Below are positions 1 to 15,216 of a stretch of DNA of 64,000 bases, in pieces; the first letter of the stretch is position 1; the number at the start of each line of letters is the position of its first letter. The notes beneath the pieces are model-generated. The model ran no database searches. It worked only from the letters and a program-made list of their open reading frames with translations, and was not told where the DNA came from. A program made the position numbers and the translations under genes. Source of the DNA: a plasmid; the sequence record NZ_CP067423.1; one strand, 5' to 3'.

Positions 1-759
1 ACCGCATTCTCGACCGCTGCCTTGTCCCTCGGCTGACGCACCCGCGTCGGGACGACGGCGATCCGGTAGTGCTGGGCAAGGTCGTGGTAGCCGGGGTTGA
101 GGGTGGGATCGTAGAACGAGGCGTGGCTGACGCCGACCTTGAGGTTGTCGGGCACCAGGCGGGCCGGAGCACCGCCCAGGTGCTCCAGCAGCCGGACGTG
201 GGAGGCCAGCCAGTCCTCCGACCGCTGCGTCCAGGTCGCTTCGGCGTAGATGTAGCCGGAGTACGGCAGGCAGGCGACGAAGATCTGCGCCGGGCGGGCA
301 TCGGCGCCGACCCCGATCATCAGGGTCATGCCGGCGTAATCGACTTCCAGCGCGTCGCCCGGCAGATGGTCGCGCCGCATCCGGGGAACTGCCCGGGCGG
401 CCTGCCAGTCCCGGAAGCGCTGGACGAACTGGGTGTAGCGGTAGCCGTCGGGATGGCAAACCAGATACTCCTGCCAGAGCAGTTGGAGCGTCACGCCCCG
501 CCGGCCCAGGTCCCGCTCCACCGCTGCCCAGTCCGGCAGGGGACGTGGCTGCGCCGGCGGTGGCGGGAACAGACGCCGCTCCAGCTCCTCGTCGCTCCAC
601 TCCTTCACGTCGCCAAAGCGCAGGTCCGCGCTCTCGAGGCGGCGCAGGTAATCGCGCACCGTCGTGCGCGGCATCCGGCATGCCGCCGCGATCCGGCGCA
701 CGCTCGCCCCGAACTCATCGCGCAGCCGCAAGACTTCCCTGATGCGTCGCATGTCCGAT
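1..759 (-). CDS. istA: IS21-family transposase IstA, partial: N-terminal ~250 aa in window; the C-terminal part lies beyond the window start
   Basis: Reverse-strand translation from the ATG at 760-758 gives MRRIREVLRLRDEFGASVRRIAAACRMPRTTVRDYLRR... (HTH), then LQLLWQEYLVCHPDGYRYTQF...VDYAGMTLMIGV...YSGYIYAEAT...GGAPARLVPDNLKVGV, typical of the IstA DDE core. There is no stop codon down to position 1. The listed + ORF 69..1118 is its antisense shadow. Confidence 0.8.
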
Positions 760-855
760 CTCCCTCGCGGCATCCCACCCTCCCTGCCCATTGTCGCAAG
801 GACCCCAGTGTAGATGCCGATACAGGATCAGACGCCGCCCATCTCTACTCCCACG
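1..855 (-). mobile_element. IS21-family insertion sequence (copy 1), truncated by the window edge; the left terminal region is upstream of istA between about 760 and 855 and its exact terminus is uncertain
   Basis: istA starts at 760. IS21-family elements carry 50-200 bp of terminal sequence before istA. The boundary with the adjacent repeat array (856-948) cannot be fixed without a reference IR. Confidence 0.55.
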
Positions 856-948
856 TGTGGGCGAAATCGCCGAAACGGCAGGGCGGTTTGAACCGAAACA
901 GGGGGGCGCTTTCCCCCGAAATCAGAGGGCGGATTCAGCCGAAATATG
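856..948 (+). repeat. Array of four contiguous ~22-23-bp direct repeats beginning TGTGGGCG (units like GGGCGG-TTT/ATT-N-CCGAAA); putative transposase-binding terminal repeats of the tniABQ element (alternative reading: IS21 terminal repeats)
   Basis: tgtgggcgaaatcgccgaaacggca / gggcggtttgaaccgaaacagg / ggggcgctttcccccgaaatcag / gggcggattcagccgaaatatg. A fifth near-identical copy (ggcggattctagccgaatc) lies at 1372-1390 next to the tniA start. TGTGGGCG is the Tn7 terminal octamer. Confidence 0.65.
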
Positions 949-1148
949 CAGCGGCGCGCCCAGGCGCAAAAATGCTTCCAGTCCGCAGCGTAGGCGCGGC
1001 GGGTGTTGGCCGAGCTCGCCGCCTCGACATAATCGCGCGCGCGATCGGCCAACGCGTCGAGATGCGCCGGCAGGCGCGGATTGGCGACGGCCGGAAGAGG
1101 GGAGGGGGCTTCGGCTGACAGTTCTTCCGGGGCGCGACCCATCTCCAT
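949..1148 (-). pseudogene. Tyrosine recombinase/integrase N-terminal (core-binding domain) remnant, truncated where it runs into the repeat array
   Basis: Minus-strand translation gives MEMGRAPEELSAEAPSPLPAVANPRLPAHLDALADRARDYVEAASSANTRRAYAADWKHFCAWARRCIF, carrying the S-x-NT-x-x-AY-x-x-DW-x-x-F-x-x-W core-binding motif of XerCD-type integrases. Beyond about 949 the reading frame only encodes the periodic repeat units, so there is no catalytic domain. Confidence 0.5.
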
Positions 1149-1271
1149 GACGACATCGATGATGTCGGGCAAATCGTCCGCAGCTTTCGCCTCCAGCCCG
1201 GCCGACGACCGCAGACCTAAAGCATCGTCCTGCGCCCCCGTGCTGTGGGGCGGTGCGGAGGGTCGCGCGAG

Positions 1272-1312
1272 GCGATTTTCGGGCTTCTGCTCGACGATTC
1301 GGGCTGTCGCTC
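1272..1312 (+). repeat. Two tandem ~20-bp repeats (cgattttcgggcttctgctc / cgacgattcgggctgtcgctc), related to the 856-948 units but in inverted orientation
   Basis: Direct reading of the sequence. Motif attttcggg(c) is the reverse complement of the (g)cccgaaat core of the 856-948 units. Confidence 0.4.
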
Positions 1313-1369
1313 GCGTTTGGTCAACGGACGGCAAGTTACTGATCTGGCGCGAATCATCTTCGGAGTTCA

Positions 1370-3094
1370 TTGGCGGATTCTAGCCGAATCAGCGGATTTT
1401 TCGTAACATTCGAGCGGACGAACTTTACAGCGAGGGTGGCTGTGGTTCATGGGCCCGACAAGGAGACGGTTGATGATGCCGCCTGGAATGAGGCGGTTGC
1501 AAGGGAGGCCGTGATCCGCAGACTGGTCTCGCTCGACTGCCCCGGCCGGTCCGATTTCTTCCGGGCTTGCCGTGAACTCGGCCTCAAGCGAACCCGGCTT
1601 TACGAACTGATCAGGGCTTATCGGGAGCATCCGGTCACGAGTTCGCTGCTGCCGCGCCCGGGCGGCACGAGACAGGGCAGCCGCCGGTTGCCGGATGAGA
1701 CCGAAGCGGTAATCGCCGAAGCGCTCCGGGACTTTTACAAGACACGCCAGAAGCCGAGCATCAATCGACTGCACAAGGAGATCCGCGGGCTCTGCCGCTC
1801 GCGTGGCGTGCGCGTACCGTCCTGGCATGCGCTGAAGGCGCGGATCGAGGTCATAGACCCCGCCGAACTGACCAAGGCACGGGAAGGCTCGAAGGCAGCG
1901 CGTGATCGCTTCCACCCAGTTCCGGGAGAATATGCCGCCGAGTGCGCGTTCAACGTAGTCCAGATCGACCACACGCTGGTCGATGTCATTGTCGTCGATC
2001 GCCGATGTCGGCGGCCCCTGCAGCGGCCGTTGCTGACGCTCGCCATCGACATCGCAAGCCGCATGGTCGCGGGCTTCTACCTGACGCTCGAGGCGCCGTC
2101 GACGGTTTCGGTCGCACTCGTAATCCAGCATGTCGTGCAGCCGAAAGAGGTGTGGCTTGCCGGACTGGGCATCGATGCGAAGTGGCCGGCCTGCGGGTTC
2201 CCTGATGCCATCCACCTCGATAACGCCAAGGAATTCCGGTCGCGCGCCCTGCAGCGGGGCGCTGAGGAATATGGCATCGAGCTCATCCATCGTCCGATCG
2301 CCACTCCCCACTATGGCGGCCATATCGAGCGGCTGATCGGCACCATGATGGGCGCCGTCCATCTTCTGCCGGGCACGACGTTCAGCGACATCGACGAGCG
2401 TGGCAGCTATGATTCCGCCGCCCATGCGACGATGACTCTGGATGAACTGGAGCGGTGGATGGCGCTCGAAATCACGCGCTACCACGCCGATCGCCATGGA
2501 ACGCTGGGGATTCCGCCGCTTGCGGCATGGCACGAGGCTGCGGCCCGCCGCGTTCGGCCTGTGCGTCAGCCCCACGATCTCGCCGGCTTCACGATCGATT
2601 TCCTGCCCAGCGCCGACCGGCTGGTGCGGCGTGACGGCATTCACCTGTTCGGTCTCCGCTACTGGGATGACGTGCTGAGCATATGGGCCGGTCGGCTCGA
2701 TCGTGCGTTGCGCGTTTCCTACGATCCACGCGATCTTTCGAGGGTTTTCGTGCGCGCTCCGGATGGTACGCGCTGGCCGATCCGCTTTGCCGATCTGCGG
2801 CGCGCGCCGATCACACTTGGCGAACATCGCCGCGCTCGGACCGCCCTGCGGGAACGCGGTCTTTCGCTGGTCGACGAGCAGCTGATCTTCGAGACCATTG
2901 AGTCCCAGCGCGCACTAGTCGAGGACGCGACCAGGCGCACCAAGGCAGCGCGTCAGCTGGCGGAGAGGCGCGACCGAGCGCTGGAGGCTGCCGCGTCAAA
3001 CGCGCTGGTTGCGGCCGAGCCGGCGCAAATCGAGGATGAGCGGCCGATCGACTGGAGCAAGGTCCCCGTCTTTCCCGTCGAGGAATGGTCGTGA
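1370..3094 (+). CDS. tniA: TniA/TnsB-like DDE transposase (Mu/rve integrase fold) of a Tn5053/Tn7-like element; the true start may be the downstream ATG near 1448
   Basis: 574-aa ORF with HTH N-terminus, then ...VVQIDHTLVDVIVVD...LAIDIASRMVAGFYL...HLDNAKEFRS...IELIHRPIATPHYGGHIERLIG (DDE/rve core) and a TnsB-like C-terminal region. The ORF overlaps tniB by 10 bp. Confidence 0.85.
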   Translation: MADSSRISGFFVTFERTNFTARVAVVHGPDKETVDDAAWNEAVAREAVIRRLVSLDCPGRSDFFRACRELGLKRTRLYELIRAYREHPVTSSLLPRPGGTRQGSRRLPDETEAVIAEALRDFYKTRQKPSINRLHKEIRGLCRSRGVRVPSWHALKARIEVIDPAELTKAREGSKAARDRFHPVPGEYAAECAFNVVQIDHTLVDVIVVDRRCRRPLQRPLLTLAIDIASRMVAGFYLTLEAPSTVSVALVIQHVVQPKEVWLAGLGIDAKWPACGFPDAIHLDNAKEFRSRALQRGAEEYGIELIHRPIATPHYGGHIERLIGTMMGAVHLLPGTTFSDIDERGSYDSAAHATMTLDELERWMALEITRYHADRHGTLGIPPLAAWHEAAARRVRPVRQPHDLAGFTIDFLPSADRLVRRDGIHLFGLRYWDDVLSIWAGRLDRALRVSYDPRDLSRVFVRAPDGTRWPIRFADLRRAPITLGEHRRARTALRERGLSLVDEQLIFETIESQRALVEDATRRTKAARQLAERRDRALEAAASNALVAAEPAQIEDERPIDWSKVPVFPVEEWS

Positions 3095-4014
3095 GAGGGG
3101 AGGGGACTTTCGAGCACCTCGACGACCGCTACCGCCGCTATGCCGCTTTGCCCGACGAAGAGCGCATTGCCTGGATCAAGGCCGACCGCTGGATCGGCTT
3201 CGACCAGGCGCAAGCCGCACTTGTCCGCCTGAACGCGTTGCTTGCCTATCCCCCACGTGACCGTATGCCCTGCCTGCTGATCTATGGCGACACCGGCATG
3301 GGCAAGACCAAGATCGTCCGCAAATTCGAGCGGGCGCATCCGCCCACATTGTGTCAGTCGACGGGCGTGACCAACAGGCCGGTCGTCGTGGCCCAAGTAC
3401 CCTCGGAGCCGGTCGAGCGCGACCTCTATCGGGAACTGCTGGCCAGCCTGCAGGCTCCAGCGCTCGTCGGCGGCGCGCTTGCCCGGGAGAAAGACATCTG
3501 CCGCTCGCTGCTGCGCACCGTCGGCGCCAGAATGATCGTGCTCGACGAGGTCAACGGCATGCTGGCGGGGACCTATCGGCAGCAACGGATTTTCCTGAAT
3601 GCGCTGCGGTTTCTCGCAAACGACCTCAGAGTGCCGCTTGTCTGCGCCGGTACCGACCTGGCGCGCCAGGCCTTGCTCACCGACGCGCAGCTTGCCGAGC
3701 GCTTCGAGGCGTTTCATCTCAAGCTCTGGAAGAACGATCACGCCTTTGCGCGGCTCTTGAAAAGCCTCGCTGGCATCCTGCCGCTGCGCGCTCCGTCCGA
3801 TCTCGAAACGGACGCGGTTCGTGAAAGGATCCACACGCTCACCAGCGGCGTCACGTTCAGGATTTTCCAGCTGATCGAGACGGCAGCCGAGGAGGCGATC
3901 CGGTCGGGGAAGGAACGGCTCGACCTGATGAGCTTCGGCGATGATCTTGTCCTTCCGCTTGTGTCGATGACGCAATCGGCACGCCGGCGGATGCCGCAGC
4001 CGGCGGCCGGGTGA
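3085..4014 (+). CDS. tniB: TniB/TnsC-like AAA+ ATPase, transposition regulator
   Basis: 309 aa with Walker A YGDTGMGKTKIV and Walker B MIVLDEVN. The start overlaps the tniA stop and the stop overlaps the tniQ start (ATGA). Confidence 0.85.
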   Translation: MVVRGEGTFEHLDDRYRRYAALPDEERIAWIKADRWIGFDQAQAALVRLNALLAYPPRDRMPCLLIYGDTGMGKTKIVRKFERAHPPTLCQSTGVTNRPVVVAQVPSEPVERDLYRELLASLQAPALVGGALAREKDICRSLLRTVGARMIVLDEVNGMLAGTYRQQRIFLNALRFLANDLRVPLVCAGTDLARQALLTDAQLAERFEAFHLKLWKNDHAFARLLKSLAGILPLRAPSDLETDAVRERIHTLTSGVTFRIFQLIETAAEEAIRSGKERLDLMSFGDDLVLPLVSMTQSARRRMPQPAAG

Positions 4015-5185
4015 TGGAGCCGGATCGTCTGCCCGTGGCGCCGCGGCCCTTTCGCGACGAATTGCTGTCCTCCTGGATGGCGCGGGTGGCATGCCGCTAC
4101 GGCCTTACGGCGCAGCAACTAGCCGGCTATTTCAGTGGCCTGTCGTCACCCCTGCCGATAGACGACGGGGCTCCGGCGGCCGGGCAGACGAGGGTTTGGG
4201 CACAGATCTGCAGTGTCGACCCCGATCGGTTGCATCGCCTGTCCCTGAGCTGGCGCTACCCGCGACGCGCTCGAGCCTGGTACGTAAGCAGGGGACCGGA
4301 ATGGACGCCGTCGGCGATGTCCGGGTCTATCCCAGTCTGTCTCGCTTGCTTCGCTGCCGATCGCGCTGCGGGCCACGACGCGCATCTTCGAGCCGGCTGG
4401 ATGCTCGCCGAACGCTGTATCTGCCCAACTCATGGCGAGTTGCTGCACGATCACTGCGTATCGTGCCACTGGCGTCTTTCCGTGGCTTTCCACCTGCACG
4501 ACGGAAGCGCGCGGCCTGTCTGCAGCCATTGCGCGCGGCTTCTCACCGATAGGGGAGGGAGGGCGGTCAGCCACAGGATCCCGCCCTCCTGGCGACGGCG
4601 CTGGCCACCCAGCAGCGGATCACGGCAAGCGTCAACGGTGAAAATCCCGAGGGCGACAGGCTCGAGAAGGCGCTCTCAGTGCTCTGGGCGCCGCTCGACC
4701 ATCCGGCAGCAGCGCGGCCGGTGCTGGCGCTGTGGTTCAACGAAGCCGGCTGGCGCTGTCCCTATGAAGCCAGGCATGCCGTCGGCGCCAAAACTCCGCT
4801 CGGCCAGTTGCCGGTGCGCTGGCGCTTCCTGACGCTGCTGGCTCTGGACGACGTTTTCGGTACCGATCCGCGCGTGGACGGTGCAATGCCGCCTGTCGCC
4901 GCTCATCTCGCCCGGCGGGCCGCGCCACGACCGATCCGCCTCTCAAGGCCAAGCCGACGGCCGCACGTCCAGCTGCTGAAGCGCTCGGCGGCCGAGTACG
5001 AGCGCCTGGCACGTCAAATTCTGGCTGATCCGAACTGGACCGCAGCGGAAGAGCTGCCCCCGCGAAAGCGAGAGCGTGTCCGGGCTCGGCTGATCGATGC
5101 TGCGCTTGCCGGGAATCCGGCGTCACCCGGGGCATGGTTGTCGCCCAAACTATCGAGCGACGAGCAGGCGATTCAGAAATGCTGA
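4011..5185 (+). pseudogene. tniQ: TniQ/TnsD-like target-selection protein, disrupted by a 1-nt frameshift in the G-run at 4551-4566
   Basis: Frame 0 ORF 4011..4832 starts MMEPDRLPVAPRPFRDELLSSWMARVACRYGL (typical TniQ N-terminus). It reads protein-like through ...HCARLLTDRGG, then becomes Arg/Ser-rich junk. A second frame is blocked by TAG at 4550 but reads protein-like from 4553 (GEGGQPQDPALLATALATQQRI...LSVLWAPLDHP...) to the stop at 5185. The combined length of about 390 aa matches TniQ. Confidence 0.7.
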
Positions 5186-5554
5186 GACTGCGTGCTGCGG
5201 GGCGTAGTCTCACGAATTTCGATTCATCCGGCCGTACAAGGATGCACGAGATTTCGTCCGCAAGCCCGATTGACGTCGATATCGGCATTCTGCTCGACGA
5301 GAGAGGCTGCCCGCTGCCGCTGTCCGGGGATTAAGCGCAAACCCGGTCCGCTCAATGAACGCGAATTCTCGTCGATCTGACGCCTAAAGGAGACTGTCCG
5401 CCGGTGAAAAGCGAGCCACAAGGCCATTTTTTAAGGGGTCTCACAAAACGAGCGATAATGCAAGATTATCATTCATTATTGTTTGCCGACAGGCAGGGCG
5501 CTTTAGGCATATTATCGTTGTCAAAAGCGCCGCCGTGATTCATCCTGCTTTTCG

Positions 5555-6595
5555 ATGATTCTGCGGCCCAAACTCCTCTCGCGCCACCCCGGCAAGCTTC
5601 TTGACGCGGTGGCCGTCGCTCCGTGGGCCCTGGTCCCGGCCTGGCTGCGCCGGGCAATCCCGGATGCGCAAAGCGTTGCGGGAAAGGAAGTTGAGGAGGT
5701 CGCGCTTGCTGCCGGTGCTGCTATCGGCGCCCTCGATGCGGTAGTCCGCCGGCAGGAACGGTGGGCCGGGGTCTGGCGGCAGCGCCTGGCGCTTGTCGCG
5801 GCCGCGGTGACGGCACGACAGGCCGGCCGCGTCGAGGATTCTTTGGCATTGCGCGACGCCGTGCTGCTGACACGCCCCGGCGATTTTTTGTCCGTTGGCC
5901 CGGCCGGGCTTTTGCTGCTCGCCTGGCGCCGGTTGGTCGACACGCCTGCCGAGAAACTGCTGACCGAGCGGAGCATCGGCGCGGTGTTGGAAGAACTCGG
6001 CTACGCCCCGGATGAAGAGGTGGTCAGCGCTCTGGTGGGGGAACTCGGTCAGATCGGCGGCGGGGCAGAGACGGTCGGGATGCTGACCGGTGCTTTTGTG
6101 GCCGCCGAACGCTATGGTTTTGGGCCGGCTTTCGGCGCCTGGCTCGCCGACGGTCTGCTGGCGCAGCGGCTGGCGTGGCCGCATGCAATACCGCTGCTGG
6201 GCACCGAAGCTGCTTTTTTTGGCATGCGTGCCGGGCATTCACGTCGGGCGGCGACCGGTATGGCGGCAGCGGGCCCTGAGACAGAGCCGGAGCGTGCCAA
6301 AAAACTGCTGGCGGCACAGGCGCGGGCGGCGCTGCGCGCCATCGATCTTTTTGCTGAGCTCGGCCGCCGTGCCGAAAAACTGCTGGCCGTCGCGCCGAAA
6401 CTCAGGGCCAAGGGAGCGGACGCGATCGTCGACCGGTTGTTGAACGAAGACGCGCTCATGGCCTCGCGCGGGGACAAAAAAATGGACAAAAAGATGAGTG
6501 ACCGGGGGCTACGCCGCCTGTTCGACCGGCTTCTTGTCCTGGGTGCCGTGCGTGAGCTGTCCGGTCGCCCGACCTTCCGCACCTACGGACTGTGA
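5555..6595 (+). CDS. Conserved hypothetical protein (DUF1403-like), found adjacent to scpB on rhizobial replicons
   Basis: 346-aa ORF, protein-like composition, preceded by an AT-rich promoter region (5440-5550). The assignment to DUF1403 is from memory of the family, not a search. Confidence 0.55.
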   Translation: MILRPKLLSRHPGKLLDAVAVAPWALVPAWLRRAIPDAQSVAGKEVEEVALAAGAAIGALDAVVRRQERWAGVWRQRLALVAAAVTARQAGRVEDSLALRDAVLLTRPGDFLSVGPAGLLLLAWRRLVDTPAEKLLTERSIGAVLEELGYAPDEEVVSALVGELGQIGGGAETVGMLTGAFVAAERYGFGPAFGAWLADGLLAQRLAWPHAIPLLGTEAAFFGMRAGHSRRAATGMAAAGPETEPERAKKLLAAQARAALRAIDLFAELGRRAEKLLAVAPKLRAKGADAIVDRLLNEDALMASRGDKKMDKKMSDRGLRRLFDRLLVLGAVRELSGRPTFRTYGL

Positions 6596-6597
6596 CG

Positions 6598-7320
6598 ATG
6601 GCGGCTCGTTCGACCAAAACTCGGCGAGACAATGGGGATGGGCAACGACCGTTGCTTGACCGGGAGCTGGATCACCTGCCGCCGGAGGCGCGCTGGCGCG
6701 AATGGATGCAGCGCGTTGAGGCAACCATTTTTGCCGCCAGCGAGCCGGTGACACGTAGTGTCCTCGCGCGGGTGGTTGGCGCGGATTGCAACCTCGATCT
6801 CTTGATCGACGACATTCGCGAGGAGCTGCGCGGGCGGCCTTACGACCTGGTCGCCGTCGCCGGCGGCTGGAAACATTTGACCCGGCCGACCTATGCCGAC
6901 GCCATCCGCGCCGCTATGGGCGGCAGTGAGAAGGCGATGGATCTCACGCAATCCGAGGTGCTGGTGCTGATGTGCGTGGCGTATTTCCAGCCGATCACCC
7001 GCGCCGAGTTGTCGTCTTTCTTCGGCAAGGAGATCAGTCGTGATTTTATTGGTCATCTGCGCGGCGCGAAGCTGATTGCGTCCGGCCCGCGCAGCCCGAC
7101 GCCCGGCGCGCCCTACACCTACGTGACGACCAAAGAATTCCTGTTGGAGTTCGGCCTCGACACGCTGCGCGACCTGCCGGATTTCGAGGCGCTCGAAGAC
7201 GCCGGGTTGCTGTCGAAGGAGAAGCTGCTGGCAGGGGATATTCCGATGGGGATTGCGGGCGGTGAAGATGATGGCGAGGACGAGCAGCCGAGCGTCGGTC
7301 TCGTCGACGACGCGATGTGA
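6598..7320 (+). CDS. scpB: Segregation and condensation protein B (ScpB)-like
   Basis: Start overlaps the upstream stop. The sequence ...EATIFAASEPVTRSVLARVVG...EELRGRPYDLVAVAGGWKHLTRP...LTQSEVLVLMCVAYFQPITRAELSSFFGKEISRDFIGHL... shows the tandem winged-helix ScpB pattern, with an acidic tail. Confidence 0.7.
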   Translation: MAARSTKTRRDNGDGQRPLLDRELDHLPPEARWREWMQRVEATIFAASEPVTRSVLARVVGADCNLDLLIDDIREELRGRPYDLVAVAGGWKHLTRPTYADAIRAAMGGSEKAMDLTQSEVLVLMCVAYFQPITRAELSSFFGKEISRDFIGHLRGAKLIASGPRSPTPGAPYTYVTTKEFLLEFGLDTLRDLPDFEALEDAGLLSKEKLLAGDIPMGIAGGEDDGEDEQPSVGLVDDAM

Positions 7321-8164
7321 TGAACGGATCATCCTGGTTTTCCTGCGCCCGCCGATGAGAACTCATGACCATGACGACTGATCGTGCGACAGGCGATGAC
7401 CGGTGAACCTACATGGCGTTGCCGTCAAGCAGGCTGGCCGGAAATAGCACCAACTTGGTGCCGCCGGCATAGCGTCGCGGCGAGAACAGGATGTCACGAA
7501 ACCCTGCTGCTTGACCTGGTCGGCGGGCTTCCAGGAAGATTCTGATGCTGTCCCGTGTCTTCCTGACGACCAGCACGAAAGCGAATTTGCTCGTGCGAAC
7601 AAGGCCGGTCTATGCCGATGCGTCGTCTGGCGGGGCAGTTCGCTTTGGAGCGGTTTGGTGATCGCTGAGGGTCTGGGAGAGACTGTGCAGCGCCCTCAGC
7701 AATTCTCCCATCGCCATACTGTGGGACAGCCCGTCTTTTTCGACGACCTTGATCAGCGCCTCGATATGGGCGCTGTCGGTATCCCACGGATTCGAAGAAG
7801 TTTTCATAAAGCATCGATTCAGGGGCAACGCGCGGGCGGCCAGGAGCGGGATGCCGCCCGCCGTGTTGCCTGATTTGCGTACTCGTTACCTGGCGCGAAT
7901 CCCAATCTCGCTGATTATGGTTAAAATAGCATTACAGACTGCGTTTGAATCAGCACCGAAGCATGCCGCTTTGTCGGGCGGATGCAGCGGCACGAGGGCA
8001 ATGCCCGTGTCGAACGGACACGACAGGATGGCCTGCTCGATTGTCAGAAACTGAAAGCGAACAGTAGATGTCGGTGTGATCGCCAGGACTGCTGAGCGAC
8101 CTTACGGAATTCGAGGATTTCGGCTGCCCGCTTTGGCATCGAATGCTCGGTCGTGGTGATTGAG

Positions 8165-8354
8165 TGTGAAATCGCACCGAACAGTAACCCCGCGTCGAGC
8201 AGGATTTATCGACCTGATTTCATTGCGAAAATTAGAATTGTCCAAGGATCTAAGAAGGCGCAAATCGCAACCCTTCGAAAATCTGGGAAAGAGCAGCTGA
8301 ATCAGACACTTGAGCATGCTGGTGCTTGGGGTTACTGTTCGGCGCGATTTCACA
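8165..8354. mobile_element. MITE-like palindromic intergenic element, copy A (~190 bp) with 27-bp terminal inverted repeats
   Basis: Left arm tgtgaaatcgcaccgaacagtaacccc (8165-8191); right arm ggggttactgttcggcgcgatttcaca (8327-8354), its reverse complement with one mismatch. The interior is about 80% identical to copy B at 10258-10451. Confidence 0.7.
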
Positions 8355-8614
8355 ACGTGTATGCGAAACTGATAAAGGTGAAGGCCGCGCCACCTCGATG
8401 ACAACCTTGTCCGCTACAATGTCGCTTGCACCTATTCGCTGCTGGGCGAGACTGATGGTGCCATCAAATTGCCGGAAATTTGCCTGAAGCAGTTTGGGAC
8501 CGACATGAAGCAATGGATCAAAAACGACTCTCGATCTCATCCGGGATCATCCGGCAATCAGACGCTTTTAGCGCCGTATTGATGTCCGTCAGCAATGCTA
8601 TGTTAGGAAGTCAA

Positions 8615-9403
8615 ATGGCTGAGCCGCCCTATCGCGTCCAGGCGTTCAACAGCGCCACGCACTCCGAAAACAGGATGCACGATGATGCGGTGGCGCAAAA
8701 ATATGGCTTCAGCGGCGGCCTGGTGCCAGGCGTCGATGTCTTTGCGTATATGGTCCACGTTCCGGTGGCGAAGTGGGGACGAGCCTTCCTCGAGCGCGGC
8801 CTGATGGAGGTGCGCTTCGCGAAGCCGGTTTACGATGGCGAAACCGTGGTGGTTACGTCCGAGCCTTCAGACGAAGGCCTAGCGATTGCGCTCAACGGCA
8901 GCGACGTTCGAGCTGCCGGCAGTGCCTCGCTGCCGGACGCGCCACCCCCGATCTCCGTTGGCGATTATCCCGAGACTGCGCCGGTTGCGGTGCGGGGGCC
9001 GGTCGATCTCAGGTCTTACCAGGTCGGCAAATGGCTCGGAACGGCGCCGCGCTCCTGGCCGGGCCAATCTGGAGCGGACTATCGGGCGGAAGTACGCGAA
9101 ACCGATCCAATCTATGCTCGCGAAGGGTTGGTGCATCCCGGTATGGTGCAGCGGGTTATGAACCGGGTCTTGATGGAGAACGCTTTACTGGGGCCGTGGA
9201 TTCATCTCGGCAGCCGCATGCAGATGCTGTCCACAGCTGCTTGCGATGAAGAGTTGGTCGCGCGGGCACGCGTTACCGCGAACTACGAAAAGAAGGGCAA
9301 CCGTTTCGTGGAAGTAGATGCCGTTGTTGTTGCGAACGGCCGGAAGTTGATCGCCCACTGCCAGCACATCGCGATCTATCAACTTCGCGAACGAGCAGCG
9401 TGA
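8615..9403 (+). CDS. MaoC-like (R)-specific enoyl-CoA hydratase / hot-dog fold dehydratase; start assigned to the ATG at 8615 with an AGGAAG RBS
   Basis: N-terminus AEPPYRVQAFNSATHSENRMHDDAVAQKYGFSGGLVPG matches the MaoC-like signature. The long ORF 8480..9403 includes an unlikely N-terminal leader. Confidence 0.65.
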   Translation: MAEPPYRVQAFNSATHSENRMHDDAVAQKYGFSGGLVPGVDVFAYMVHVPVAKWGRAFLERGLMEVRFAKPVYDGETVVVTSEPSDEGLAIALNGSDVRAAGSASLPDAPPPISVGDYPETAPVAVRGPVDLRSYQVGKWLGTAPRSWPGQSGADYRAEVRETDPIYAREGLVHPGMVQRVMNRVLMENALLGPWIHLGSRMQMLSTAACDEELVARARVTANYEKKGNRFVEVDAVVVANGRKLIAHCQHIAIYQLRERAA

Positions 9404-9606
9404 GGCACAAGGCTGTCGAGCAGCATCGTCACCGGCGCACCCGGTTCTGCAGGCCGTCAAAACAGATAAGGGAACGCAAGACACGCACGTGACAATCGCT
9501 CCACCAGACGCGGACGGGGATTCTAGTCGCCTTTCAAGTTTGTCCCCCAGGACAGCCCGTGTCTGCTTCGGCGGCGCGGGCATCCTTACAACGAAAGCAA
9601 TCAAAG

Positions 9607-10257
9607 ATGCCCAATGCGGCGCTGGTATATCCCGATACGAAGCTCTTTATTGATGGCGAATGGCGTGAGGGTCGCGAATGCCGGACTATTCCGGTTATTG
9701 ATCCGGCGACCGAGGAGACGATCGGCTCGGTTGCACATACCGCGCGCCGGATCTCGACGCCGCGCTGGCCGCCGCCGATCGCGGCTTCAAACTCTGAAGC
9801 TCAACCTCGGCGTTTGATCGGTCTAAGCTGATGTGCAAGGCCGCCGGCTTGCTGCGAGAGCGCGGAGATCGCATCGCCTGGCTCCTGACGCGCGAGCAAG
9901 GCAAACCTTTGGCAGAGGCCAAGGGCGAAGTGATGGCGGCGCCGACATCATCGATTGGTTCGCTGAGGAGGCGCGCCGCACTTGCGGCCAGGTGATTCCG
10001 GCGCGCGCGCGAAGAGCCATGCAGATGACGCTCAAAGCTGCCGGTCGGTCCGGTGGCCGCGTTCACGCCCTGGAACTTCCCGTCAATCAAACAGTGCGCA
10101 AGCTCTCCGCGGCGCTCGCCGCCGGCTGCTCGATCATCGAAGGCGCCGGCACCGCCGCCGGCGGCGCCTGCCGAGCTCCTTGGCGCCTTCGTCGATGCCG
10201 GCGTGACCGCCGGGGGTCGTCACTCTGGTCTCTGGCGCGCCGGGGGAGATCTCCGAG
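9607..10257 (+). pseudogene. Aldehyde dehydrogenase pseudogene: several frameshifts, 3' end truncated by MITE copy B
   Basis: MPNAALVYPDTKLFIDGEWREGRECRTIPVIDPATEETIGSVAHTA..., then ALDH-like segments in shifting frames (...DLDAALAAADRGFKLW..., ...LLRERGDRIAWLLTREQGKPLAEAKGEV..., ...DIIDWFAEEARR..., ...[11 protein letters not shown]...). Only about 215 codons precede the MITE arm at 10258; a full ALDH is about 480 aa. Confidence 0.7.
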
Positions 10258-10451
10258 TGTGAAAATGCGCCGGCCAGTGACCCCGCGTCGAGCAGGATTT
10301 GTCGTGCTGATTTCATTGCGAAGATGAGTGTTGTCCTAGGGATCTCAGAAGGCACGATTGTGACCCTGCGAATCTCACAAAGAGCAGCTGTATCAAACTC
10401 TTGAATGTTCCAGTACCTAGGGTCACTGGCCGGCGCATTTTCGCAGCCGAT
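10258..10451. mobile_element. MITE-like palindromic intergenic element, copy B (~194 bp) with 23-bp perfect terminal inverted repeats
   Basis: Left arm gaaaatgcgccggccagtgaccc (10261-10283). Its reverse complement is at 10428-10450 (gggtcactggccggcgcattttc). The arm sequence differs from copy A, but both arms have changed together. Confidence 0.7.
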
Positions 10452-10560
10452 CGCCTAATCAGATTCACGCGCTCGAAGGCGCACTGAGTCAGTCGGTCTG
10501 GTCGGCATCGAGGTATCGTCCCTCGGTTCATTACGCTTCGGCACCTTGGGGTCGATTGCA

Positions 10561-11289
10561 CTATTTGGTAGTTTGTTCCGGCGCCGCGTGGAGAGTCTGC
10601 CATGTGGCCAGGGCTCGGGACAAGTGTCGGTCCATCATTCCCACTGCCAAATCGGTTCGACGAGCCTCAATGGCTTCAAGTATCTCACAATGATCGTCGT
10701 AAGCTTGCGTGCCCCGTGAGTAATCTGAAAAGTATATTATGCGACGCTGTTTTGAGAATTCATAAAATAATTTCACCGTGCGAAGCAGTACTCTATTCTG
10801 TGTTGAAGCGACGATTCCAAGATGGAACGCTTCATCCTCAGCCTCAATTGTCTTTTTGCTATCAATTGCAAGCTTCGTTTTGTAGAGGATTTCCCTCAGC
10901 CGATCTACGTCCTGATCCCGCCTTCTATCGCAGGAAATCCGTACGCCCTGCAGCTCCAGAATACTTCGCACTTCAAACACGTCCTTAGTCTCTTCAGGCT
11001 GAAACGGCAGGCCAGAAGACGCACGAAGAACGAGGGCCTCGATGCTACTTTCCTCAGAATTTCTAAGATAGATCCCAGAGTTAGGCCTTCGCTCAATCAC
11101 ACGCATCGACTCGAGAGCGGCCAAAGCCTCGCGAACCGCCCCGCGACTGACATTGAACCTGTCGGCAAAGTCACGTTCCGACGGCAATCGTTCGTTCGGC
11201 TCATAGCGACGCTCATCAATGAATGAGAGTATTTTCCCTACAACGTTCGGGACACCGGCAATCCTATCGCTTTCCGTCTTCTCAAGCAT
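10561..11289 (-). CDS. GntR-family transcriptional regulator, FadR subfamily (N-terminal wHTH plus FCD effector domain)
   Basis: MLEKTESDRIAGVPNVVGKILSFIDERRYEPNERLPSERDFADRFNVSRGAVREALAALESMRVIERRPNSGIYL..., then a helical FCD-like C-terminal region. About 50% GC, lower than the flanks. Confidence 0.8.
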   Translation of the reverse strand: MLEKTESDRIAGVPNVVGKILSFIDERRYEPNERLPSERDFADRFNVSRGAVREALAALESMRVIERRPNSGIYLRNSEESSIEALVLRASSGLPFQPEETKDVFEVRSILELQGVRISCDRRRDQDVDRLREILYKTKLAIDSKKTIEAEDEAFHLGIVASTQNRVLLRTVKLFYEFSKQRRIIYFSDYSRGTQAYDDHCEILEAIEARRTDLAVGMMDRHLSRALATWQTLHAAPEQTTK

Positions 11290-11409
11290 TTTTCGGTCTT
11301 TTTTCCAGCCGTCAGTCCATCCCAACCAGGTCCATCCCGATACGGAAGGGTCATAAATCATACGCGTTGCTTGGCAACTCGAACCCAAAGTACCAGTGAA
11401 ACCCTAGCC

Positions 11410-11431
11410 GGTCTACCAAATTGGTTAATCC
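11410..11431. promoter_or_regulatory. Operator-like palindrome ggtctaccaaattggttaatcc, ~120 bp upstream of the GntR gene
   Basis: Contains GGT-CT-ACC and ACCA-AAT-TGGT inverted half-sites, the FadR-subfamily operator style. Related CCAAATTGG motifs recur at 17224-17330, 28756-28785 and 31411-31446. Confidence 0.45.
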
Positions 11432-11616
11432 GGCTCCGCGCTGAAGCTGCCATATGCCCGATGGTTAAGCCACCCGTTCATTAAACTCCCCACGGCATGC
11501 CTTGCGCGTAGAGATGGCCAAGCGCGGCGCCCGGCCAACACCAAGCCGATGGCCTAGCCGTAAACGCCGTCCGCCGTTCAGGGCCTTCCTCTATCGCCAC
11601 CGCACCCTCGAGACGC

Positions 11617-11690
11617 AGGTCGAAACTACCTTGCTCTCGTCAAACTCATTTCAGCTAAAATCTAGATGCAATTCATGGGTCGGTGACCTA
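11617..11690 (+). repeat. Direct repeat, copy a (~70 bp), upstream flank of the ethD-like gene
   Basis: aactaccttgctctcgtcaaactcatttcagctaaaatctagatgcaattcatgggtcggtgacc aligns at about 80% identity with 12167-12240 (aactactttgctctcgtcaagcgcgcttcagccaaaatctggatgcgctctatgaaccggtgaag). Confidence 0.55.
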
Positions 11691-11738
11691 TAAATGCCCC
11701 CGGAACGCTCGGAGAGGCGTTCAGGTAGGAGCCCGACC

Positions 11739-12053
11739 ATGATCAAGATGAGCGTCTACTATCCGGCCCATGGCGGCTCGAAGTTCGACCACGATTACTA
11801 CTGTGCCAGCCACCTGCCACTGATCAGAGAACGAATGGGCGATGCCTGCCTGCGCTACGAGATCGAGAAGGGCCTAACGGGCCGCGAACCTGGAAGCGCG
11901 CCGGAGTTCGTCGCAGCGTGCCACATCTACTCACCGAGCCTGGGGACATTCCGGGAGGCGTTCGGCCCACACCGCGCGGAGATCGTCGCGGACGTCGCCA
12001 ACTATACGGACATCGCACCCATCGTGCAGATCAGCGAAATCGTTGGAGCGTAA
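11739..12053 (+). CDS. EthD-family (Dabb/antibiotic-biosynthesis-monooxygenase-like fold) small protein
   Basis: MIKMSVYYPAHGGSKFDHDYYCASHLPLIRERMGDACLRYEIEKGL..., about 104 aa, with an AGGAG RBS upstream of the ATG at 11739. Confidence 0.55.
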   Translation: MIKMSVYYPAHGGSKFDHDYYCASHLPLIRERMGDACLRYEIEKGLTGREPGSAPEFVAACHIYSPSLGTFREAFGPHRAEIVADVANYTDIAPIVQISEIVGA

Positions 12054-12166
12054 GGGCTTCGGTGCGTCAGGCTTGGCCGTTGTCCGGGATCGGCGTCGTG
12101 CTCGCCATGACCAGCTAACCGGTGCCGAACAGGTCCACGATCAGGAACGTGTCATTGCCATTCATG

Positions 12167-12240
12167 CGACAACTACTTTGCTCTCGTCAAGCGCGCTTCA
12201 GCCAAAATCTGGATGCGCTCTATGAACCGGTGAAGTAGAC
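12167..12240 (+). repeat. Direct repeat, copy b; downstream flank of the ethD-like gene
   Basis: See copy a. Together they bracket a ~480-bp segment holding only the ethD-like gene. Confidence 0.55.
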
Positions 12241-12555
12241 CGGCGCTGGCGAACGGTTCCAGAAAGCACCCGAAGCCTGCATCATTAACTCCATCTATCT
12301 TCGAAGTAGGGGTCAAAGTTCGGTCGTGCGGATACCCGCCGGGACCAGCGCCGCGTCGATCATTGCCATGACCATGTTCTGCGGGGCCTTGCCGATGTCG
12401 ATGACATGTCGGCGGTGTCTATAGTGAGGGTGAACATGCGTCTCTCTCCTCACCTGCGAAGAGTAGAGCGAAGGTGCAGCCCGCTCACCGACTTGAGGCC
12501 AGCCTGCCGCAAAGTTCATCGGCAAAACCCGCTTCCAAGCACATTCCGCACGCAA

Positions 12556-12580
12556 AAGCCGTTTCACGCTTTTGCTTGGA
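12556..12580 (-). terminator. Possible terminator hairpin downstream of glcG (gcaaaag-N10-cttttgc)
   Basis: 7-bp perfect stem immediately 3' of the glcG stop on the minus strand. No strong U-tract follows. Confidence 0.3.
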
Positions 12581-12587
12581 AATGGGG

Positions 12588-13019
12588 TTAGCCCTTGTCC
12601 GCGGCCAGGCCTACCTGTTCGACAGCGTGCGCCGCGCAGATTTCGTCGTTGTCCGATGTATCGCCGGAGATTCCGACAGCACCGAGGGTTTCGCCCGCTT
12701 CCCCGCGTATCAGGACACCACCGGGAACCGGCACGATCTTCCCGCCGGAAACGCCGGACAGGGCTTGGACAAAATGAACACGCTCGGCGGCGGCCGCGTT
12801 CAGCCAGCGGGAGCCCGAGCCGACCGCCAGCGCGCCATAGGCTTTGCCAAAGGCGATCTCGAAGCGGAGCATGGAAGAACCATCCTGCTTCTGGAATGCG
12901 ATGAGGTGGCCGCCTGCATCGAGCACCGCGACCGAGAGCGGCTTCAGGTTGAGCTCCCGCCCCCGATCCAGCGCGGATTCGATGATGCGATTGGCGACAT
13001 TCAACGTGATGGTATTCAT
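12588..13019 (-). CDS. glcG: GlcG/HbpS-like (DUF336) protein
   Basis: MNTITLNVANRIIESALDRGRELNLKPLSVAVLDAGGHLIAFQKQDGSSMLRFEIAFGKAYGALAVG...GGVLIRGEAGETLGAVGISGDTSDNDEICA, a typical DUF336 sequence. It lies 4 bp downstream of glcB. Confidence 0.75.
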   Translation of the reverse strand: MNTITLNVANRIIESALDRGRELNLKPLSVAVLDAGGHLIAFQKQDGSSMLRFEIAFGKAYGALAVGSGSRWLNAAAAERVHFVQALSGVSGGKIVPVPGGVLIRGEAGETLGAVGISGDTSDNDEICAAHAVEQVGLAADKG

Positions 13020-13023
13020 TGTT

Positions 13024-15216
13024 TTATCCCGTTCCGAGAACGTTCTCGCCTGCCCCACTGGCCTTCAGCTCCAACCGGCGGGCGTGCAGAACCGGCTCGG
13101 TATAGCCGTTCGGCTGGGCGCGGCCCTGCAGCACCAGATCACACGCGGCCTGGAAGGCGATCGAATTCTCGAAATCCGGGGCCATCGGCCGATAAAGCGG
13201 GTCGCCCTCGTTCTGCCGGTCGACGACCGCCGCCATGCGCTTCATCGTCTCCATCACCTGATCGCGCGTACAAACGCCATGATGCAGCCAATTGGCGATG
13301 TGCTGCGAGGAGATGCGCAGCGTGGCGCGATCCTCCATCAGGCCGACATCGTTGATGTCCGGCACTTTCGAGCAGCCGACACCCTGGTCGATCCAGCGCA
13401 CGACATAACCCAGGATGCCCTGGGCGTTGTTGTCGAGTTCCTTCTGGATCTCTTCGGGCGTCCAGTTCGGCCGCAGGGCGACGGGGATCGACAGGATGTC
13501 GTCGAGCTTGGCCTTCGGGCGGTTTTTGAAACCTTCCTGCACGGCGTGCACATCGACCTTGTGGTAGTGCGTCGCATGCAGCGTCGCGGCTGTCGGCGAC
13601 GGCACCCAGGCGGTGTTGGCGCCGGCCTTCGGGTGAGCGATCTTCTCAACCAGCATCGCCGCCATCAGGTCGGGCATCGCCCACATGCCCTTGCCGATCT
13701 GGGCATGACCGGCAAGCCCGCACTCCAGGCCGGTGTCGACATTCCACGCTTCATAGGCGGAAATCCACGCCGCCTGCTTCATGTCGCCCTTGCGGATCAT
13801 CGGGCCGGCTTCCATCGAGGTGTGGATCTCGTCGCCGGTGCGGTCGAGGAAGCCGGTGTTGATGAAGACGACGCGTTCGCGGGCTGCACGGATGCATTCC
13901 TTGAGGTTGACCGTGGTGCGGCGTTCCTCATCCATGATGCCCATCTTCAGCGTGTTGGGCTGCATGCCGAGCGCCTGTTCGACGCGGCCGAAAAGCTCGA
14001 CAGCGAACGACACCTCCTCCGGCCCGTGCATCTTCGGCTTGACGATATAGACCGAGCCTGTCCGCGAATTGGCGCGGCGGCCATTAGGGCCGACATCGTG
14101 CAGCGCGATCAGGCTGGTGATCATCGCGTCCATGATGCCTTCCGGAACCTCATTGCCGTCGCGGTCGAGGATCGCCGGGTTGGTCATCAGGTGGCCGACA
14201 TTGCGCACCAGCATCAGCGAGCGGCCGGGCAGAGTCAGTTTGCTTCCGTCGGGTGCCGTATAGTCGCGGTCAGGATTGAGCTTGCGCGTGAACGTCTTGC
14301 CGCTCTTCGAGACCTCTTCCTCTAAATCGCCCTTCATCAGGCCGAGCCAGTTGCGGTAGACGGCGACCTTATCCTCGGCGTCGACCGCGGCGACCGAGTC
14401 CTCGCAGTCCTGGATGGTGGTAATGGCCGATTCCAGAATAACGTCTGAAATTCCAGCCTCGTCTTGGCTTCCGATGACGTGTTGATCATCAAGGATGATT
14501 TCGATGTGAAGGCCGTTTCTCGATAAGAGCAACGAAGACGGATTGTCGACGTCACCTAGGTACCCCGCGAATTGTGAGGGATCGCGCAACCCACCCTCCG
14601 AGGAGCCCGTCATCAGTCGAAACTGACCATCTTTAATTTGAGAACTGGTCATGTTTGACCAGCTGTCTGTCTTCAACGGCACGCTGTCATCTAAGAATGC
14701 TCGCGCCCACGCGATGACTTTCTCGCCGCGCTTGGGATTGTAGCCATTGCCCTTTTCGGCGCCGTCGGTCTCGGGAATGGCATCGGTGCCGTAGAGTGCA
14801 TCATAGAGCGAACCCCAGCGCGCGTTGGCGGCATTCAGCGCATAACGGGCATTCATCACCGGCACGACGAGTTGCGGACCGGCGACGGTGGCGATCTCCG
14901 GATCGACGTTTTCGGTGGTGACCTTGAAATCCGGACCTTCGTCCAGCAGGTAGCCGATCTCCTTGAGGAAAGCCTTGTAGGCCGCCATGTCGGACGGCGC
15001 GCCATTTTCGCGATGCCAGGCGTCGATCTTCTCCTGAATCTCGTCGCGCTTTTCGAGCAGCGCCCGGTTCTTCGGAGCGAGGTCGCGAACGATCTTGGCG
15101 AAGCCGGCCCAGAACTCTGCGAGCTTGATGCCGGTGCCCGGCATCGCGCGCTTGTTGACGAAATCGTAGAGCCCGCGATCGACCTGCAACCCGCCGACTT
15201 CGATTCGATTTGCCAT
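13024..15216 (-). CDS. glcB: Malate synthase G
   Basis: About 730 aa from the internal Met ([71 protein letters not shown]...), collinear with GlcB/AceB-G through the C-terminus. A GGAG RBS sits upstream. The listed 844-aa ORF carries an in-frame 5' extension that is a glcD fragment. Confidence 0.9.

Follow-up and report, generated by a model that had tools for sequence, protein, structure and literature searches.

A cargo-free tniABQ element at a fixed distance from a dif-like palindrome on alphaproteobacterial plasmids

Transposons of the Tn5053/Tn402 group move replicatively into res sites, using the target's resolvase and generating 5-bp repeats, and defective members without a res site are still resolved with the help of the target resolvase (PMC7765201). 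More broadly, Tn7-like elements that lack TnsA form cointegrates, and those that have no resolvase can be resolved in trans or by RecA (PMC8649781; PMC11406308). Here, we describe a three-gene tniABQ element in a 64,000-nt stretch of plasmid DNA (NZ_CP067423.1; 'the window' throughout). The element occupies 1305–5420 and is, with good probability, a transposon of the Tn5053/Tn402 branch that carries no cargo, no resolvase and no TnsA and that sits at a fixed site beside a dif-like palindrome; the copy in the window is a relic.

We compared the window with its relatives by megablast, DNA alignment, tblastn and motif scanning, and identified domains by Pfam, NCBIfam and PDB matching. The loci most used below are the Aminobacter plasmid pMDW3 (L001), Skermanella sp. 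TT6 pTT6-1 (L002), a Chelativorans sp. AA-79 plasmid (L003), a Nitrobacter copy (L005), a Xanthobacter copy (L006), Mesorhizobium sp. AR02 pMspAR02c (L007) and pMspAR02a (L008), Rhizobium sp. CB3171 pCB3171_4 (L010, element at 6001–10195), a Mesorhizobium ciceri element (L012) and a Roseovarius copy (L088). A scan for the palindrome core covered species-representative genomes and matched at least 120 contigs (L013–L131 among the loci). Positions 951–13600 of the window are 100% identical to pMDW3 (megablast). From left to right, the resulting map shows a partial IS21 element, a split Xer-like integrase gene (int), the tniABQ element (4,116 bp) and a dif-like site for attachment.

The tni element is bounded by the inverted repeats TGTCGCTCGCGTTT and TGTGGCTCGCTTTT. 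Its limits follow from homology breakpoints, from three empty sites and from perfect 5-bp duplications in relatives. The ends and their flanks are as follows.

1305–1441, plus strand: left (tniA-proximal) end, with the terminal inverted repeat TGTCGCTCGCGTTTGGTCAACGGACGGC at 1305–1332
5310–5420, minus strand: right (tniQ-proximal) end, with the terminal repeat TGTGGCTCGCTTTTCACCGGCGGACAG on the minus strand at 5394–5420; the end reads …GCGAGCCACA, …CCACA
1300–1304, no strand: left copy, CGGGC, of a decayed 5-bp duplication
5421–5425, no strand: right copy, AGGCC, of the same duplication, from flank comparison with relatives

An inverted-match scan aligned 1305–1332 with the reverse complement of 5393–5420 (TGTGGCTCGCTTTTCACCGGCGGACAGT) at 18 of 28 positions. 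The 14-mer TGTCGCTCGCGTTT occurs with no mismatch at the left and two at the right in the window, and with one on each side in the Nitrobacter copy. By motif scan, L005, L006, L010 and L011 have TGTCGCTCGCATTT at the right end, which departs from the left-end 14-mer at one position, and all copies end in …CGAGC(G/C)ACA. On the other side, homology with L005, L006 and L010 begins at TGTCG…, the DNA further left being unrelated, and one megablast hit (H8) starts exactly at 1305. Conserved blocks of GCGGAY type lie at 1325–1329, 1372–1396 and 1414–1425 in an alignment of six left ends (A1), and the right ends of seven copies (A2) share blocks at 5394–5420, 5347–5357 and 5322–5325; from their sequence, the GCGGAY-type blocks are presumed to be TniA binding sites. 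A promoter scan of the left end found nothing. An initial annotation of this DNA, made from the letters alone, had put the right end near 5411–5420 just before a shift to AT-rich DNA, and both points hold: the terminus lies at 5407–5420, and GC content is 0.46–0.47 at 5400–5550 compared with 0.65–0.74 on either side. The three weak right-end sites it proposed (5205–5227, 5251–5271 and 5365–5386) fall off the conserved blocks of A2, and the Tn7-like ends it described are not the ends of this element, which begin TGTCG… in the manner of Tn402/Tn5053; the Tn402 inverted repeat presumably begins TGTCG as well. We also sought in the window the inverted repeat of a different Chelativorans element (see below), TGTCATTTGTCA. 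It has two matches, each with two mismatches, where about 2.5 are expected by chance, and thus this type of end is not used in the window.

Empty and filled sites agree with these boundaries. In pMspAR02a, int is followed directly by a DUF1403 gene, and joining the two flanks of the window gives the sequence between these genes, …GATCGACGAGAGAGGCCATTTCCTCTATAAAG…. The int–vapCB–DUF1403 locus of pMspAR02c reads …TTTCTACCTGTGG… (TACCT) and is an empty site for the Rhizobium element, where the sequence runs …TTTCTACCA, then TGTCC…GCGACA, then TACCATTG, a perfect TACCA duplication around three intact genes. The M. ciceri element, flanked by a perfect GGGGC duplication, has its empty counterpart in locus L057. 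The initial annotation had recommended looking for such empty sites in related replicons, and for 5-bp target-site duplications; the latter are perfect in relatives (TACCA, GCGCG, GGGGC) and unclean at the window's own flanks (CGGGC/AGGCC). The flanks of the closest relatives match at four of five positions (GGGGC/GAGGC in L003, GCGGC/GGGGC in L004), and the empty pMspAR02a site has GAGGC. In Xanthobacter, two elements lie in tandem: the second abuts the right end of the first and has GCGCG on both sides, such that the pair shares one 5-mer. The left flank of the first is CTCGG, not GCGCG, so the stacking history there is more complex than simple stacking. The Roseovarius copy has no recognisable duplication.

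Between the ends lie only the three genes and a short composite segment.

1442–3094, plus strand: tniA, TnsB/MuA-type DDE transposase, 550 amino acids, full length, GTG start at 1442 (1511 in the Prokaryotic Genome Annotation Pipeline, PGAP)
3085–4014, plus strand: tniB, AAA+ regulator of TnsC type, 309 amino acids, intact (PF05621 at 1.5e-67)
4014–5185, plus strand: tniQ pseudogene (target selector), PF06527 on the N-terminal half, the two halves in frames +1 and +3
5186–5309, plus strand: composite internal segment; 5200–5250 resembles the right end of another lineage and 5288–5307 is a copy of the attachment site

The genes overlap by 10 nt (tniA/tniB) and 1 nt (tniB/tniQ), and their Pfam and PDB matches bear out the earlier identification of an overlapping Tn5053/Tn7-type module. 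TniA has the Pfam domains Mu-transpos_C, HTH_Tnp_Mu_2 and rve and matches Tn6677 TnsB (1e-39) and ShCAST TnsB (4e-29) in the PDB; its D176, D260 and E296 align with D205, D287 and E321 of ShTnsB, the published catalytic triad (PMC9527255), and the DDE triad is therefore intact. TniB matches VchTnsC and ShTnsC. Specifically, these structure matches, together with 42–45% amino-acid identity between TniA and the tniA products of integron-bearing enterobacterial plasmids (tblastn), assign the module to the Tn5053/Tn402 branch of Tn7-like elements. The list of open reading frames and the Pfam search contain no recombinase reading frame or domain and no TnsA reading frame within 1305–5420. The initial annotation was thus correct that no tniR follows tniQ, which is also the case in the intact Rhizobium element with its three genes only. 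Its suggestion of a minimal element of three tni genes stands as to content and right end (no tniR, no cargo, a stop at 5420), but the left end is at 1305, which makes the element 4,116 bp long instead of about 4.6 kb.

The target selector gene is broken in the window. In tblastn, intact TniQ proteins of L003 and L006 follow frame +1 as far as about 4559 and match frame +3 beginning at about 4553. In DNA alignment, the window has GGGGAGGG-AGGGCGG and both L003 and L004 have GGGGAGGGGAGGGCG: one G is absent from the run at 4557–4559. This is the single-nucleotide frameshift already suspected from the sequence. Three Aminobacter plasmids are 100% identical over the region, which makes a one-off read error unlikely and marks the frameshift as inherited. 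Because tniQ is inactivated, this copy is probably immobile unless complemented. The deletion of one nucleotide, the decayed duplication and the fixation of the same allele in several Aminobacter plasmids are the features of a relic. Other copies have lesions of their own: a tniA frameshift in L003, a tniB frameshift in L004, a break near the end of tniQ in L005, an IS3 element between tniQ and the right end in L006, and several lesions and a truncated left tip in L011. Among the copies compared, only the Rhizobium element looks intact.

What distinguishes the location of the element is the sequence to its right, which together with int belongs to the plasmid; the initial annotation had noted neither the split recombinase gene nor the palindrome, which appears to be the target for attachment.

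5445–5479, no strand: 35-bp dif-like palindrome AAAACGAGCGATAATGCAAGATTATCATTCATTAT, with 11-bp arms (…ATAA / TTAT…) and a 7-bp spacer, present in every locus examined
951–1304, minus strand: 5′ part and upstream region of int, a Xer-like tyrosine recombinase gene of the plasmid backbone, cut by IS21 at 950/951
5555–6595, plus strand: DUF1403 gene (PF07183 at 2e-61), plasmid backbone, not cargo
6592–7320, plus strand: ScpB-like gene (PF04079 at 1.8e-31), plasmid backbone, not cargo

Arms of 11 bp around a short spacer are the layout of dif and cer sites. The palindrome reads AAAACGAGCGATAATGCAAGATTATCGTTCGTTTT in the empty site, and its arm is ACGANCGATAA in Hyphomicrobiales and ATGTCCGATAA in Rhodobacterales. 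Int (on the minus strand), the palindrome, DUF1403 and the ScpB-like gene form a conserved module on alphaproteobacterial plasmids, with the palindrome between int and the DUF1403–scpB operon; DUF1403 and ScpB genes directly follow int in the empty sites of the two Mesorhizobium plasmids. Of 120 palindrome-core contigs listed, 56 (from Hyphomicrobiales and Rhodobacterales) carry Int, DUF1403 or ScpB beside the core, and most of the module-bearing sites among them are empty. The int gene, intact in pMDW3 (L001 7134–8420), has the Pfam domains Phage_integrase and SAM-like N; among the matches listed, L007, L008 and about 45 other contigs carry it but have no tni genes. We presume from its form that the palindrome is a plasmid dimer-resolution site. 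With its 11-7-11 architecture, its linkage to int and its co-occurrence with int in the 56 contigs, the palindrome would make a putative Xer/dif module with Int; the best NCBIfam matches of Int are XerD and XerC, but at scores far below the family cut-offs. In three comparisons homology breaks at about 5504, the start of the variable 5′ region of DUF1403, and not at the palindrome, which is uninformative on recombination. The block that separates the palindrome from the start of DUF1403 is conserved across loci and includes a promoter-like site (5486–5515; CCGACA, 18-nt spacer, TATTAT). The literature searched, of incomplete coverage, contains no description of a function for the DUF1403–ScpB module; nor did we find in it an earlier account of this attachment site, of its use as a target or of the lineage, which for the same reason is weak evidence of novelty.

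The distance from the last base of the right end to the palindrome is constant: 24 nt in the window, L003–L006, L010–L012, L026, L081 and L088, across Hyphomicrobiales and Rhodobacterales copies with unrelated left flanks. Five contigs listed (L026, L045, L081, L087 and L088) have a tni right end at the same position to within ±1 nt, in some of them with a TniQ only about 44–47% identical to the window type. The left flank varies (int upstream region, vapB, other DNA) and the palindrome on the right is constant, and thus the landmark is on the palindrome side. Other tni lineages use the same place. One of them, at about 6305–11547 of L012 and 3333–7938 of L006 (the first Xanthobacter element), occupies the same position and carries, immediately within its right end and opposite to tniABQ, a serine recombinase gene or what remains of one. 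A further one, in L042, has TGTCGGA… ends and TGAGAC repeats and lies about 14 nt further left.

Some right ends may also record earlier events at the site. In the window, 5200–5250 is homologous to L009 9118–9166, the sub-terminal right end of an L009-type lineage with GTCTCA repeats, and 5288–5307, about 113 bp inside the right end, matches the empty site of pMspAR02a (L008 5335–5354) at 18 of 20 positions, with a score of 30 against a shuffle maximum of 25. Similarly, L005 12877–12900 matches L008 5338–5361, across the insertion point, at 21 of 24 positions. In L010 and L011 an inner motif resembling a right end lies 296 bp inside the outer one (L010 9886–9899). Judging from these sequences, composite right ends are probably what remains of tandem stacking and the subsequent capture of a more distal end.

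Comparison with described systems places the element closest to Tn5053/Tn402 (Tn5090). Both have the gene order tniA–tniB–tniQ with overlapping frames; the element further has a related TniA, terminal inverted repeats (about 25 bp) that start with TGTCG and are followed by sub-terminal repeats, 5-bp duplications in its relatives, no TnsA (replicative transposition is presumed) and, as in that group, orientation-specific insertion beside a plasmid recombinase system (PMC7765201). It differs in that an internal res site, tniR and cargo are all lacking. Where Tn5053/Tn402 target the res site of a serine resolvase, the landmark here is a dif-like palindrome next to the gene for a Xer-like tyrosine recombinase. 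Insertion keeps an exact distance of 24 bp from this landmark, whereas insertions of Tn5053/Tn402 are spread in and around res. In addition, the tniA-side end faces the recombinase gene here, whereas Tn5053 sets IRo nearest the resolvase gene (PMC7765201). By its sequence, then, the element belongs with Tn5053/Tn402 as a decayed variant, without resolvase or cargo, that most likely homes to a dif-like site on alphaproteobacterial plasmids. A separate element, at about 756–4728 of the Chelativorans plasmid, is also tniABQ-only: it is 3.97 kb long and has perfect 12-bp inverted repeats (TGTCATTTGTCA) and an empty site in pMDW3 (about L001 4890). Its insertion point is 5 bp upstream of a serine recombinase start codon, and it represents another type of minimal res hunter that lacks tniR.

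With Tn7 (TnsABCDE, attTn7) the element shares the broad Tn7-like set of a TnsB-family transposase, a TnsC-family ATPase and a TniQ-family selector (TniQ/TnsD), arrays at the ends (of putative sites here), a 5-bp duplication (in relatives), and a fixed distance and single orientation relative to a sequence that in Tn7 is read by a TniQ-family protein. The features of Tn7 proper are absent: we found no TnsA reading frame and no TnsE, and TGTGGGCG is not at the ends but internal to IS21. The tandem stacking in Xanthobacter suggests weak or absent target immunity, unlike Tn7. Tn5469 of Fremyella diplosiphon is likewise a minimal cargo-free Tn7-like element with transposition genes only and a single TniQ (PMC11406308); we liken the two by description only, and Tn5469 comes from another host phylum and was found by gene inactivation, not at a dedicated attachment site. 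The Cas12k/ShTnsB system has the same TnsB–TnsC–TniQ core with neither TnsA nor resolvase and forms cointegrates (PMC11406308), and TniA matches ShTnsB at 4e-29 with its DDE triad aligned. It differs in that the window element has no Cas12k, CRISPR array or guide RNA, such that its target is presumably read by protein alone.

The left part of the region belongs to a different mobile element.

1–950, minus strand: IS21-family insertion sequence, partial, extending beyond the left edge of the window; istA start codon at 752–750
856–950, minus strand: left-end terminal region of this IS21, with four repeats spaced by about 23 bp (GGGCG-N7/8-CCGAAA); the tip is TGCATATTTCGG on the minus strand

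An istA/istB element of Skermanella pTT6-1 shows 100% identity to window 1–951 (megablast), and Aminobacter plasmids without the insertion sequence match the window continuously from 951 on. The tip of the Skermanella copy is …GCCGAAATATGCA and its far end is TGCGTATTCCGGCGAAAGCGCCC…TTTCGGTTCAAACCGCCC…CGTTTCGGTGATTTCGCCCAC, that is, the same repeats inverted (about 1621–1690 of L002); the 8-bp duplication GATCCGGC flanks both ends. The features of the IS21 family are thus all present by way of the identical copy: istA and istB, TG…CA termini, several sub-terminal repeats per end and the 8-bp duplication. In the window, the direct repeats at 870–944 comprise three 29-nt copies with 23-bp spacing and 76% identity; Tandem Repeats Finder, run on 700–1600, made no call, the IS21 repeats being too diverged for detection. 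The octamer TGTGGGCG, which matches the terminal octamer of Tn7, is at 856 a part of the innermost repeat, 95 bp from the tip of the insertion sequence. Since the same repeats are found inverted at the far end of the Skermanella copy, the repeats at 856–950 and TGTGGGCG are the terminal repeats of an unrelated IS21-family element, and not, as the initial annotation had it, a Tn7 terminal octamer with four 22-bp TniA sites at 856–948. Repeats of this kind at the other IS21 end are the very finding that the initial annotation had named as fatal to its reading. Later, this IS21 entered the integrase gene, 354 bp to the left of the tni element, and it inactivates the plasmid's Xer-like integrase gene in the window. 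The likely int start codons are at 1148 or 1142, where homologues begin (1142–1148); the PGAP start in pMDW3 (window 1370; L001 8355–8420 equals window 1305–1370) falls within the transposon's left end, and the annotated N-terminal stretch of about 22 residues, which is transposon-derived, is probably an annotation artefact.

Nothing else about this IS21 is unusual except for one unexplained likeness. Its outermost repeat GGCGGATTCAGCCGAA (928–943) is nearly identical to the tni left-end site GGCGGATTCTAGCCGAA (1372–1388), with 16 common bases and one indel. The shared pattern occurs at these two places only in the 64 kb and in none of 100 shuffles, but it was built after both copies had been seen, and a fair significance is hence only about 0.05. 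The 'fifth copy' once assigned to 1372–1390 is thus indeed similar to the outermost repeat of IS21, but it belongs to the conserved sub-terminal sites of the left tni end and not to the IS21 array. The complete identity over 951 bp between an Aminobacter-type plasmid and Skermanella (Rhodospirillales; insertion sequence at L002 1621–4252) suggests that the insertion sequence was exchanged recently between orders. Window 27615–28394 matches istB of a second, different IS21-like element at 98.6% (L002 7473–8252), so the plasmid holds more than one IS21-family copy. Further away, Aminobacter sp. SR38 (NZ_CP062114.1) matches window 30000–54000 in two pieces that cover about 33.7 kb for a 24-kb query; a merBA gene is among the features listed in the SR38 match and is absent from the lists of the other two plasmids.

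Four other explanations of the region deserve consideration, two of which concern the extent of the element. The initial annotation drew it from 856 to about 5420–5440 (about 4.6 kb), with a Tn7-style TGTGGGCG end, four TniA repeats and an autoregulatory fifth copy. The repeats are real and one does closely resemble the site at 1372–1388, but we regard this extent as virtually untenable: window 700–951 is 100% identical to the Skermanella IS21 with its inverted far end and 8-bp duplication, the integrase gene is unbroken across 950/951 in plasmids without the insertion sequence, 951–1304 is integrase coding and upstream sequence that tni-free plasmids also have, and the homology of relatives stops at 1305, not 856. 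Conversely, the module might be what is left of a larger Tn5053/Tn402-type transposon that has lost res–tniR and cargo (mer or an integron) beyond 5440. Canonical members are indeed tniABQ–res–tniR plus cargo (PMC7765201), and the sister lineage of L012 keeps a serine recombinase at the same site. Such a truncation is nevertheless extremely improbable, as seven copies have a conserved right inverted repeat after tniQ, at 5420, the Rhizobium element has both ends inside a perfect duplication with three intact genes and nothing else, and the DNA past 5420 is the sequence of an unoccupied attachment site.

The other two concern int and the constant position. TnsA-less Tn7-like elements often bear a serine or tyrosine resolvase (PMC8649781), and int, which adjoins tniA divergently in many plasmids, could be the element's own tyrosine-type resolvase (tnsR), in which case the transposon would span from beyond int to 5420 and IS21 would have hit the transposon itself; in two comparisons a conserved block does begin just past the int stop codon (L001 7109 and 7112). 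Against this, int, palindrome, DUF1403 and ScpB occur without tni in L007, L008 and most of the 56 module contigs listed, the TGTCG… inverted repeat and the perfect 5-bp duplications fall between int and tniA, vapBC or other genes part int from the element in L005, L006 and L010, and a motif scan found no matching inverted end beyond int. We therefore consider it very unlikely. Somewhat less remote, though still improbable, is a single old tni insertion inherited vertically with the module, its constant position reflecting common descent and not homing. Element and backbone identities do co-vary, most copies are inactivated in different ways (tniQ in the window, tniA in L003, tniB in L004, several lesions in L011), and the window, L003 and L004 have common left flanks and similar decayed duplications. 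Common descent of one insertion does not account for duplications that differ and that each fit the local empty site (TACCA with an empty TACCT; GGGGC; GCGCG), for the second Xanthobacter element having re-used the same 5-mer, for at least three tni lineages with different ends at the site (window type, L012 type, L009/L042 type), for Rhodobacterales copies of 44–66% protein identity at the same position to within ±1 nt, or for about 50 of the 56 module-bearing sites listed being empty. Element identity follows that of the backbone, and most copies are thus old residents decaying in place.

We return to the preferred reading, a homing Tn5053/Tn402-branch element of three genes, and to how it might work. 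We predict that TniQ would read the palindrome, or a recombinase bound there, and would then place TniB and in turn TniA; insertion would thus occur at a fixed distance, in a single orientation and with a 5-bp duplication. Without TnsA, transposition would be replicative and would give a cointegrate. Both copies of the element in that cointegrate would adjoin a resolution site, in direct repeat, and for this reason the plasmid's own recombinase could resolve it; RecA may do so instead. Several points weigh against this reading. Recombination at the palindrome, action of Int on it and its binding by TniQ are all putative, and the palindrome, which lies just upstream of the promoter-like site, could act as an operator. 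Borrowing of a resolvase is not needed to explain the choice of target, since the L012 sister lineage, found at this very position, has a serine recombinase of its own. Element identity (80–91%) tracks that of the backbone (int 76–87%) between plasmids, such that vertical descent along with the module could account for much of the distribution, with few demonstrably independent events. The window's own duplication is degenerate, its inverted repeats agree at only the 18 of 28 positions given above, and the reading does not account for the composite right end with its internal copy of the attachment sequence.

The corrected map is relevant to plasmids of Aminobacter, Mesorhizobium, Chelativorans, Nitrobacter, Xanthobacter, Rhizobium and roseobacters, on which these genes are now labelled merely 'Mu transposase C-terminal domain', 'TniB' or 'hypothetical', and it carries a lesson for annotation, as two neighbouring mobile elements had been merged into one by eye. 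With three genes, two ends of about 120 bp and a 35-bp landmark, the locus is a compact natural system that suits asking how a TniQ-type selector reads its target and how cointegrates are cleared by Tn7-like elements that have neither TnsA nor a resolvase. Tentatively, and with more doubt than confidence, we propose that the lineage may be a 'dif-site hunter', one that homes 24 bp from a Xer-like site, stacks in tandem and depends on the plasmid's tyrosine recombinase for target capture, resolution or both. If true, tyrosine recombinases would join serine resolvases as systems exploited by the res-hunter strategy, and there would be an explanation for how a Tn7-like element without TnsA or a resolvase completes transposition.

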